DNA of 64,000 nt, taken from contig CAYNHV010000001.1 in assembly GCA_964397315.1 (NCBI GenBank), positions 12,367 to 76,366 of the forward strand, in the 5' to 3' direction. The position numbers and the translations under genes were made by a program. The notes beneath the pieces are model-generated. The model searched no databases. It was not told the origin of the DNA and saw nothing but the letters and a program-made list of their open reading frames with translations. Shown here in pieces: positions 42,240-43,034 of this stretch. Position 1 is the first letter of the stretch, and the number at the start of each line of letters is the position of its first letter. The stretch comes from an uncultured Methanosarcinales archaeon. GTDB lineage: Archaea > Nanobdellota > Nanobdellia > Woesearchaeales > UBA12501.

Positions 42240-42464
42240 ATGGTTAACATAACACTTTCAGTGCCTGCAGAAACAAAGCAGAAGATGGACTCCTTTTCTG
42301 AGATCAACTGGAGCGCAGTGGCAAGAGAGGCCATTAATGAGAAGATAACTGACCTGGAATTCATGAAGAAATTCAAGTCAAAAAGCACTCTCACAGAGGA
42401 TGAGGCTGTAAAGCTCGGCAGGGAGCTTAACAAGAGCCTCGCGAAGAGGAGGCAGACAGCTTAA
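42240..42464 (+). CDS. VapB-like antitoxin (small DNA-binding protein upstream of the PIN gene)
   Basis: 74 aa; its stop overlaps the start of the PIN ORF (ATGG...). Confidence 0.45.
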   Translation: MVNITLSVPAETKQKMDSFSEINWSAVAREAINEKITDLEFMKKFKSKSTLTEDEAVKLGRELNKSLAKRRQTA

Positions 42465-43034
42465 TGGATCTTGTAATAGACGCCAACATACTCTTCTCTG
42501 TGCTGATAAGAAAAGGGAAGACTGAGGAGCTTCTGTTTGAGGATGACCTTCATCTTTTTGCTCCTGAGTTCATATTTGAGGAATTCAGGAAGTGTCAAAA
42601 ACCACCAGTCAGAGACCGGTGGCATGAAGCGAAAGCTTCATTCTCATTCTTTATTGACCTGTGGTTTTTGAGCATGCTCAGAAATATACCCTCTGCGGAT
42701 ATGCCTTTGTGGACTTTGTCCACTGGTTAAATAAACCAGTGGTATATTTCTGACATATGAAAAGCTGATATTAGAGAAAACTGACCGTCAGAAGGGGGAA
42801 TTTGAGAAATTGATGGATATCCTCAACAGAAGAATAAAGACAACCCCAAACGAGGACACATGGCAGTATGTCCAAAAAGCTATAGAGATCAGCCCTGACA
42901 GGAAGGATGCTGACTATATTGCATTGGCTCTCAAGCTGAAATGCCCTTTATGGAGCAATGATAAAAAGCTGAAAGATCAGGAAGAGGTCAGGGTATATTC
43001 CACCAAAGAGCTGATCAGGGAATTCAACCTATAA
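42464..43034 (+). pseudogene. vapC: vapC (PIN-domain toxin) interrupted by 166-bp MITE; precise excision restores a 134-aa ORF
   Basis: N-terminal piece 'MDLVIDANILFSVL...APEFIFEEFRK', C-terminal piece '...DADYIALALKLKCPLWSNDKK'. The element occupies 42593..42758 (166 nt = 3n+1), and the two pieces are in frame once it is removed. Confidence 0.65.
42593..42758. mobile_element. 166-bp MITE-like structured repeat, copy B (inside vapC)
   Basis: 165/166 identical to 13323..13488. Confidence 0.65.

Follow-up and report, generated by a model that had tools for sequence, protein, structure and literature searches.

A putative VapC-like PIN toxin gene split by a short mobile element beside an intact antitoxin gene in a DPANN archaeon

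The locus lies in a 64-kb stretch of archaeal DNA (the window, by which we mean the whole stretch that was analyzed) and consists of a small antitoxin-like gene followed by a PIN-domain gene that is cut in two by a non-coding repeat (Table 1). The antitoxin stop codon (TAA) and the toxin start codon (ATG at 42464) overlap by one base. The PIN reading frame opens with MDLVIDANILFSVL, is native through 42592, and then continues for 45 foreign codons within the element before stopping at 42730, while the C-terminal reading frame lies in the +1 frame and ends with DADYIALALKLKCPLWSNDKK...REFNL at 43034. These positions agree with the first-pass annotation, which had placed the vapB-like gene at 42240..42464, begun the PIN frame at 42464, and had it enter the element at 42593. 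The split falls between residues E40 and D91 of the PIN domain, so that the C fragment lacks D6 and E40 and the N fragment carries 45 foreign residues added by the element. At the filled site, the junctions read TTCAGGAAG/TGTCAAAAACC and TTTCTGACA/TATGAAAAGC (slash, junction), and the conceptual empty site of the toxin gene reads GAATTCAGGAAG/TATGAAAAGCTG.

Table 1. Coordinates of the toxin-antitoxin locus, its mobile element, and neighboring features (window positions unless a locus is named)
Feature	Coordinates	Strand	Basis
DUF4258 gene and MazE-like pair	38393..38946		
HicB-like gene	39145..39420		
AAA_14/DUF4143 ATPase	39393..40673		PADLOC PDC-S01 match, E=2.7e-108
AbiEi/AbiEii	40831..42074		
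92-nt direct repeat, copy 1; starts in the AbiEii stop codon, directly 5' of the cassette	42073..42164		
vapB-like antitoxin gene, 74 aa, ribbon-helix-helix, intact	42240..42464	+	ORF; 80% identity to L056/L057 partners
PIN (VapC-like) putative toxin gene, N part, 43 codons, with D6 and E40	42464..42592	+	PIN_2 positions 1-48; homologue alignment
Non-coding 163-nt mobile element, PATE-like "MITE"	42593..42755	-	Second copy; boundary evidence; ssDNA fold
Subterminal hairpin at the other end (presumed RE), CCACCRGTC-loop-GACCGGTGG	42602..42622	-	9 nt from end TTGACA
Subterminal hairpin at the target-adjacent end (presumed LE), CCACTGGTT-loop-AACCAGTGG	42720..42742	-	13 nt from end
Target hexamer TATGAA (minus strand TTCATA), codes Y44-E45, unduplicated	42756..42761	+	Flank logo; homologues
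PIN putative toxin gene, C part, 92 codons and stop, with D91, D94, S110, and D112	42756..43034	+	PIN_2 61-116
92-nt direct repeat, copy 2; 89/92 identical, 14 nt past the toxin stop	43049..43140		
Element copy 2, intergenic, 162/163 identical, followed by TATCAA	13323..13485	-	Repeat comparison
Leader of tnpA in Woesearchaeota loci	L058 1830-2000; L059 1325-1500; L065 1-100; L038 2650-2570 (minus strand)		

The module belongs to a defense and toxin-antitoxin (TA) island, the other genes of which lie upstream (38393-42074), and is followed by polysaccharide-synthesis genes, with archaeal A-type ATP synthase genes elsewhere in the window. For the toxin, the element, and the transposase discussed below, the nearest relatives come from DPANN (Woesearchaeota) bins. 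A 92-nt direct repeat brackets the cassette; the downstream ORF starts inside the second copy (ATG at 43091), which contains its initial ~17 codons along with a TATA-like box, and the first copy gives just a 27-aa stub. This arrangement suggests that the cassette came by recombination or duplicative insertion. The 92-nt repeat was absent from the 54 loci we compared, from JGI metagenomes, and from the homologous operons in L056 and L057. We rejected an attC-like reading of it, as the sequence is unstructured.

Joined conceptually, the two parts of the toxin gene restore a 135-aa ORF. The first-pass annotation had proposed aligning the joined ORF with PIN-domain profiles and had named a lack of the conserved PIN acidic residues as the result that would count against its reading. 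The alignment returned Pfam PIN_2 (PF10130) at E=1.2e-25 and 90.8 bits (cut-off 22.4) over positions 1-115 of 133, and the acidic residues are present. On its own, the N part matches profile positions 1-48, and the C part matches 61-116; once joined, coverage is contiguous from 1 to 115. We found 615 homologues of the restored protein, nearly all 133-136 aa long and aligned over their full length, the closest of them 74% identical across 100% of the query and many from Woesearchaeota or Nanoarchaeota bins. All residues that never vary in 121 sequences (M1, D6, N8, F11, F36, E40, D91, D94, A99, C106, W109, and Q118) are kept, as are the near-invariant S110 and D112, the latter conserved in at least 90% of the 121. 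The acidic residues D6, E40, D91/D94, and D112 were mapped to catalytic positions by motif context rather than by superposition.

Structure prediction pointed the same way. An AlphaFold (AF2) model of the restored toxin reached pLDDT 91.2 and pTM 0.84 with the 121-sequence alignment, replacing a discarded run in which a 25-sequence alignment gave pLDDT 56. Its top Foldseek matches in the PDB were all PIN/VapC proteins (PAE0151, a Mycobacterium tuberculosis VapC in a TA complex, Pyrococcus horikoshii VapC4, VapBC15, and FitB/FitAB, with P. furiosus and P. horikoshii PIN proteins also among them), at probability 1.00 and TM 0.6-0.74. By sequence, the PDB yielded a weak VapC6 match alone (E=0.006), and the curated VapC families all scored below their cut-offs: PF01850 at 20.9 bits (cut-off 23.6; E=5.7e-4), TIGR00305 at 20.1 (29.15), and TIGR00028 at 12 (73.6). 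Because PF01850 and the TIGR models stay below cut-off and the protein is a PIN_2 relative, we use the name "VapC-like." The restored protein is predicted to adopt a VapC-like PIN fold, and the accurate label for the module is "RHH_12-PIN_2, VapBC-like."

The exact bounds of the insert matter for what follows. In the first-pass annotation, the element measured 166 nt, the gene resumed at 42759, and excision restored an in-frame PIN protein of 134 aa. Restoration of the frame held up, but the figures did not: the element is 163 nt long, the gene resumes at 42756 with the Tyr44 codon TAT, and the protein has 135 aa. The 166-nt block is indeed common to both copies in the window, TAT happening to follow each, and at the toxin site this trailing TAT (42756..42758) belongs to the gene. 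The earlier argument that a 3n+1 insert length explains the frame offset holds for 163 nt as well. The pair K43-Y44 is invariant in 24 close homologues, each of the two residues is conserved in at least 90% of 120 homologues, and the closest homologues read KYE, that is AAG/TAT GAA. Excision of 163 nt also gave the highest PIN_2 score (90.8 bits, compared with 82.7 for 166 nt and 80.9 for 169 nt). The motif TATNAA occurs once in the restored gene, as TATGAA at nucleotide 130; in other genomes, almost every element copy is followed by it. Since its fourth base varies across those copies, the hexamer reflects a preferred target and lies outside the element. The split gene is thus independent proof of where the element ends, and it establishes that the target is TTNATA and that no duplication is made.

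That the insert is a genuine repeat, as the earlier reading had it, is borne out by the second copy in the window, which differs at 1 of 163 positions where chance would be expected to give none. The element ends, TGTCAAAAACCACC... and ...CCAGTGGTATATTTCTGACA, recur at 13323..13485, and a family model found these two copies and no others in the 64-kb window. A scan of species-representative genomes returned 53 stretches with the 20-nt element end, most of them in Woesearchaeota bins (JAZDHV01, JBDROB01, JASMCJ01, and others) and further ones in bins that carry the labels Aenigmatarchaeota, Nanoarchaeota, and Methanosarcinales. With few exceptions, the copies are non-coding and 146-223 nt long. 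The element therefore defines a high-copy family across Woesearchaeota and other DPANN bins. It was not found in the viral contigs searched with the element end, and neither Rfam nor ARAGORN matched the element or the locus. Across bins of different archaeal phyla, the target-adjacent ~90 nt (42667-42755 here) are 80-85% identical and the other half is much more variable, which points to strong constraint on the conserved half or to recent horizontal spread.

Beside element copy 2, on the minus strand at 13497-13670, lies a stretch of ~170 nt that resembles a tRNA in several respects: its acceptor-like ends are complementary (GCGCCGG...TCGGCGC), GTCTAATGGCTATGAGAC is D-arm-like, and the motif GTTCGAAA occurs twice. 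No call was made there by ARAGORN (introns allowed) or Rfam. An atypical tRNA, perhaps one with several introns, is one possibility among others.

Across 42 unique copies, the flank following the end ...CTGACA has the composition T42 A41 T41 N A42 A40. By contrast, the left flank is random, and no consistent target-site duplication was found in these 42 copies; at the toxin site, the flanks are GGAAG and TATGA. We take the top strand of the element to be the minus strand of the window. On this strand, the layout runs from TTNATA/TGTCAGAAATATA through a hairpin (CCACTGGnn-loop-nnCCAGTGG) and an internal GCATGC to a second hairpin (GCCACCnnnC-loop-GnnnGGTGGT) and the end T(T/C)TTGACA/, the bounds of the element being TTNATA/TGTCAGAAATATACC...GGTGGTTYTTGACA. 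Overall, the element folds into two long (~78-nt) palindromic hairpin modules joined by GCATGC, and it is strongly structured as ssDNA (z=-7 to -7.7). Stem positions 8-9 of the LE hairpin covary across copies (TT/AA, TC/GA, CC/GG, TG/CA), and the RE hairpin has compensatory variants of its own (GGTC/GACC, CATC/GATG, GATC/GATC, AGTC/GACT, AGCC/GGCT). The far end, TTGACA, resembles the target TTNATA. A direct match between the two ends is confined to TGTCA plus AAA, and further likeness is due to the two hairpins. In two copies (L013 and L047), one hairpin module has its inner segment in the opposite orientation to that in all other copies (GGACCACCAGTCAATAGACTGGTGGCATGTTCGCTTCGCTCACCC versus its reverse complement), and it looks as if the segment had flipped between the inverted arms of the module.

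The site in the toxin gene is exceptional among those occupied by this family. With in-silico excision, mid-gene insertion whose removal restored an interrupted ORF was seen at the toxin site alone, or 1 of 43 unique sites, and one other copy lay at the extreme 3' end of an ORF. The 107-aa ORF across the 13323 site, which stops ~3 codons beyond the junction, is probably spurious, being antisense to a minus-strand gene. The window contains 240 target hexamers, ~78% of them within ORFs by a crude ORF map. Set against a single mid-gene site in 43, this means that the retained copies are heavily intergenic (rough binomial P ~1e-24). That the toxin-gene insertion persists would mean that it is very young or that loss of the toxin costs nothing or even helps.

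A recent date is what the sequence of the insert suggests. The insertion looks very recent because the element is 99.4% identical (162/163) to its sister copy and because the split gene has no second lesion. The antitoxin gene, meanwhile, is intact. It is 80% identical, and equal in length at 74 aa, to PF26688 (RHH_12) genes that precede intact PIN_2 genes in L056 and L057, and this agreement in length and identity with partners from uninterrupted operons backs the earlier statement that the vapB-like gene is intact. The NCBIfam model VapB_Sulfo matched it weakly and under the cut-off (E=4.7e-7). A TATA-like TTTATATA lies ~32 nt 5' of the antitoxin gene as a putative promoter element.

Judged from its sequence, the locus is a type II TA-like module made up of an RHH_12 antitoxin and a putative PIN_2 nuclease toxin. 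In it, the PIN toxin gene has very probably been inactivated recently by a non-autonomous element, with the antitoxin left intact. The first-pass description of an antitoxin beside an inactivated toxin is supported by the PIN identity of the joined ORF and by the intact antitoxin, with the loss of activity itself predicted. The split gene would be expected to yield no active toxin, and the antitoxin is presumably still expressed from its own TATA-like box. The module would then lack addictive potential at present and would have taken the first of two decay steps. Pseudogenization of the toxin first and the antitoxin second is a common decay route of chromosomal TA systems (PMC13617665), and of the two fates that the first-pass annotation had offered, a decaying module or one domesticated by the insertion, decay in the form of toxin-first erosion along a known route is the better reading.

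Domestication is compatible with toxin-first erosion, and we regard it as unlikely. Here, the orphan ribbon-helix-helix protein would have been kept to regulate transcription or to counter related incoming PIN toxins as an "anti-addiction" factor, and selection would have favored the insertion. The intact antitoxin and upstream region would fit this idea, as would the setting in a defense and TA island with AbiE, PDC-S01, HicB-like, and MazE-like genes and the finding that only 1 of 43 sites is mid-gene. However, the insertion is very recent by its look (162/163, no further decay), and an intact antitoxin would therefore be expected under neutrality as well.

How the element moved is a separate question. 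The earlier label "MITE" fits in that this is a short non-coding repeat, but the element is not of the classical type with terminal inverted repeats and target-site duplications: it lacks a duplication, its target is one-sided, and its hairpins are subterminal. The one-sided target, the lack of duplication, the hairpins at unequal distances from the ends, and the resemblance of TTGACA to the target place it in the IS200/IS605/PATE class, and it is probably an IS200/IS605-type non-autonomous (PATE-like) element. In archaea, no IS family is as widespread as IS200/IS605 (PMC13343696); the targets of that family include TTCAT, TTTAT, and TTGAT (PMC10055086; PMC3119063), and scarless excision has been described for it (PMC10055086). 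Mobilization by a Y1-type transposase is the route we lean toward, with reservations.

On that route, a Y1 HUH transposase acting in trans would move the element as a single strand ("peel-and-paste"), inserting it 3' of TTNATA (minus-strand TTCATA here) with no target duplication. In the toxin gene, the 163-nt element entered between codons 43 and 44. It parts D6/E40 from D91/D94/D112, which should leave no active PIN domain, and it spares the antitoxin gene and the promoter region. Excision would be scarless, rejoining AAG/TAT and regenerating the 135-aa toxin gene exactly. If the element is indeed Y1-mobilized, the disruption would in principle be reversible without a scar, and an empty-site junction in sequencing reads would be a testable trace of this. 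The transposition chemistry and its reversibility are presumptive, and reactivation of the toxin upon excision is speculative.

Candidate transposases occur in the same group of archaea. A Y1_Tnp pseudogene in one locus (L038; Pfam E=1.4e-28 with an in-frame TAA read through) was found by tblastn with an IS200 TnpA as query. Its intact IS200-like relatives carry the NCBI name [quoted passage not shown] and one of them (P0126) is encoded on JAZDHV010000042.1. Both the pseudogene and P0126 come from the bins richest in the element. We found no element ends flanking the Woesearchaeota tnpA genes in L058-L065, no autonomous Y1 TnpA element with the same ends in the 54 loci or the window, no tnpA or tnpB among the scanned window ORFs, and no TnpA/TnpB ORFs by a crude motif filter. 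The link between transposase and element is one of co-occurrence only.

The tnpA genes have small inserts and upstream features of their own. In L058 (JAZDHV010000042.1), tnpA carries at ~2092-2142 an in-frame 51-nt "micro" double-hairpin insert (CAGAAATCTaAGATTTCTG-GGATGC-CAAAAATCttCGATTTTTG) whose outer stems resemble those of the 163-nt element, and the L038 gene (1931-2600) has further small inserts besides its in-frame TAA. A conserved leader reaching up to ~180 nt 5' of the Woesearchaeota tnpA genes contains three GGT(C/T)CGCT motifs and a CCAGCTAAAGCTGG hairpin. In L058, a ~59-nt tandem repeat (~3.5 copies) lies just 5' of this leader.

A bolder version of Y1 mobilization would have the element belong to an undescribed, DPANN-wide superfamily of double-hairpin elements, the 51-nt micro-versions included, moved in trans by a stand-alone Y1 protein that is IS200- or RAYT-like and serving at this locus as a reversible OFF/ON switch of the PIN toxin. 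We give it only a slim chance. If it were true, the split toxin allele of this reduced-genome archaeon would not be dead.

A cut-and-paste MITE moved by a DDE transposase is improbable. In that case a footprint would usually remain after excision, and the toxin gene would be lost for good. In keeping with this reading, the element is short, non-coding, and multi-copy and has a short terminal inverted repeat, TGTCAAAAA/TGTCAGAAA (TGTCA...TGACA), as such a MITE would. However, 0 of 42 unique copies show a consistent target-site duplication, the hexamer is one-sided, and covariation keeps the subterminal hairpins, all of them traits foreign to DDE MITEs. We also tried and rejected a TA-duplicating (Tc1/IS630-like) MITE, as the left flanks do not end in TA.

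A search for the uninterrupted allele, which the first-pass annotation had proposed, covered several large collections. Among 5.8 billion cluster representatives, no protein was >74% identical to the restored toxin, and a 26-mer spanning the empty site was absent from JGI metagenome contigs. The looked-up proteins of the source contig were all singleton clusters, and the contig index yielded neither the vapB product nor the 88-aa N-terminal fragment. In the Logan assembly of SRR7048227, both neighboring genes are present at 100% identity, but the contigs break inside the 92-nt repeats, two of them ending exactly within the repeat, so this assembly is uninformative on the insert. With no empty-site allele found, we infer mobility at the toxin site from its anatomy alone.

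It is very unlikely that the split gene is an artifact of the assembly or of the population, that is, a repeat mis-join or an insertion present in part of the population. The contig is metagenome-assembled (154,853 bp), the Logan contigs of SRR7048227 end at the 92-nt repeats, and the vapB gene is not on record there. However, the insert is flanked by the two halves of a single gene, correctly ordered and oriented, which a chimeric join cannot give, and heterogeneity would leave the identity of the inserted allele unchanged. Least credible of all is removal at the RNA level by an archaeal bulge-helix-bulge or self-splicing intron, with the toxin still being made: exact removal would restore the frame and the structure is strong (z ~-7), but no intron or other Rfam family matched, the splice points would fall at the base of the terminal helix rather than in 3-nt bulges, and the element occupies >40 intergenic sites, which is why we rejected both an intron and translational bypass.

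Taken as a whole, the locus is best explained by toxin-first erosion through insertion of a non-autonomous element, most likely of the IS200/IS605 type, a reading that we put at roughly 0.8. A toxin knocked out by a mobile element while its antitoxin survives is an ordinary, textbook kind of event.

Among known systems, REP/REPIN sequences and their RAYT transposases share with this family the high-copy palindromic doublets and a Y1 gene that lies outside any IS with matching ends. RAYT genes are typically flanked by their own REPs. By contrast, an element-flanked transposase occurs here in one decayed copy (L038) and not in L058-L065. We know of no archaeal REP/RAYT case.

The closer match is with the PATEs of Haloquadratum walsbyi (PMC3119063) and of Geobacillus (ISGst; PMC10055086), which share the lack of duplication, a one-sided TTNAT-type motif, a hairpin at each end, the likeness between end and target, and a size of ~150-200 nt. 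Unlike in PATEs, the hairpins here are nested in ~78-nt palindromic modules with a GCATGC junction, and the target has six bases (TTNATA). In IS200/IS605 elements generally, the TEM resembles the TAM, just as the element end TTGACA resembles TTNATA here.

The module itself compares well with type II VapBC and FitAB modules, in which a PIN gene of ~135 aa is likewise preceded directly, with an overlap, by a small DNA-binding antitoxin gene. Also shared are the PIN fold and the acidic residues, and the structural neighbors are VapC toxins and FitB. However, canonical VapC belongs to PF01850, whereas the putative toxin here belongs to PF10130 (PIN_2) and its gene is split. Finally, the erosion of TA systems in Photorhabdus (PMC13617665) offers a parallel for the present state of the locus, as there too the toxin is inactivated, the antitoxin is intact, and the module lies in a variable island. 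That study described mostly truncations and point mutations, whereas here there is one clean insertion of an element, and in an archaeon. The locus would thus provide a clean and datable case of toxin-first TA erosion in a DPANN archaeon, in which the disrupted gene can be reconstructed exactly.
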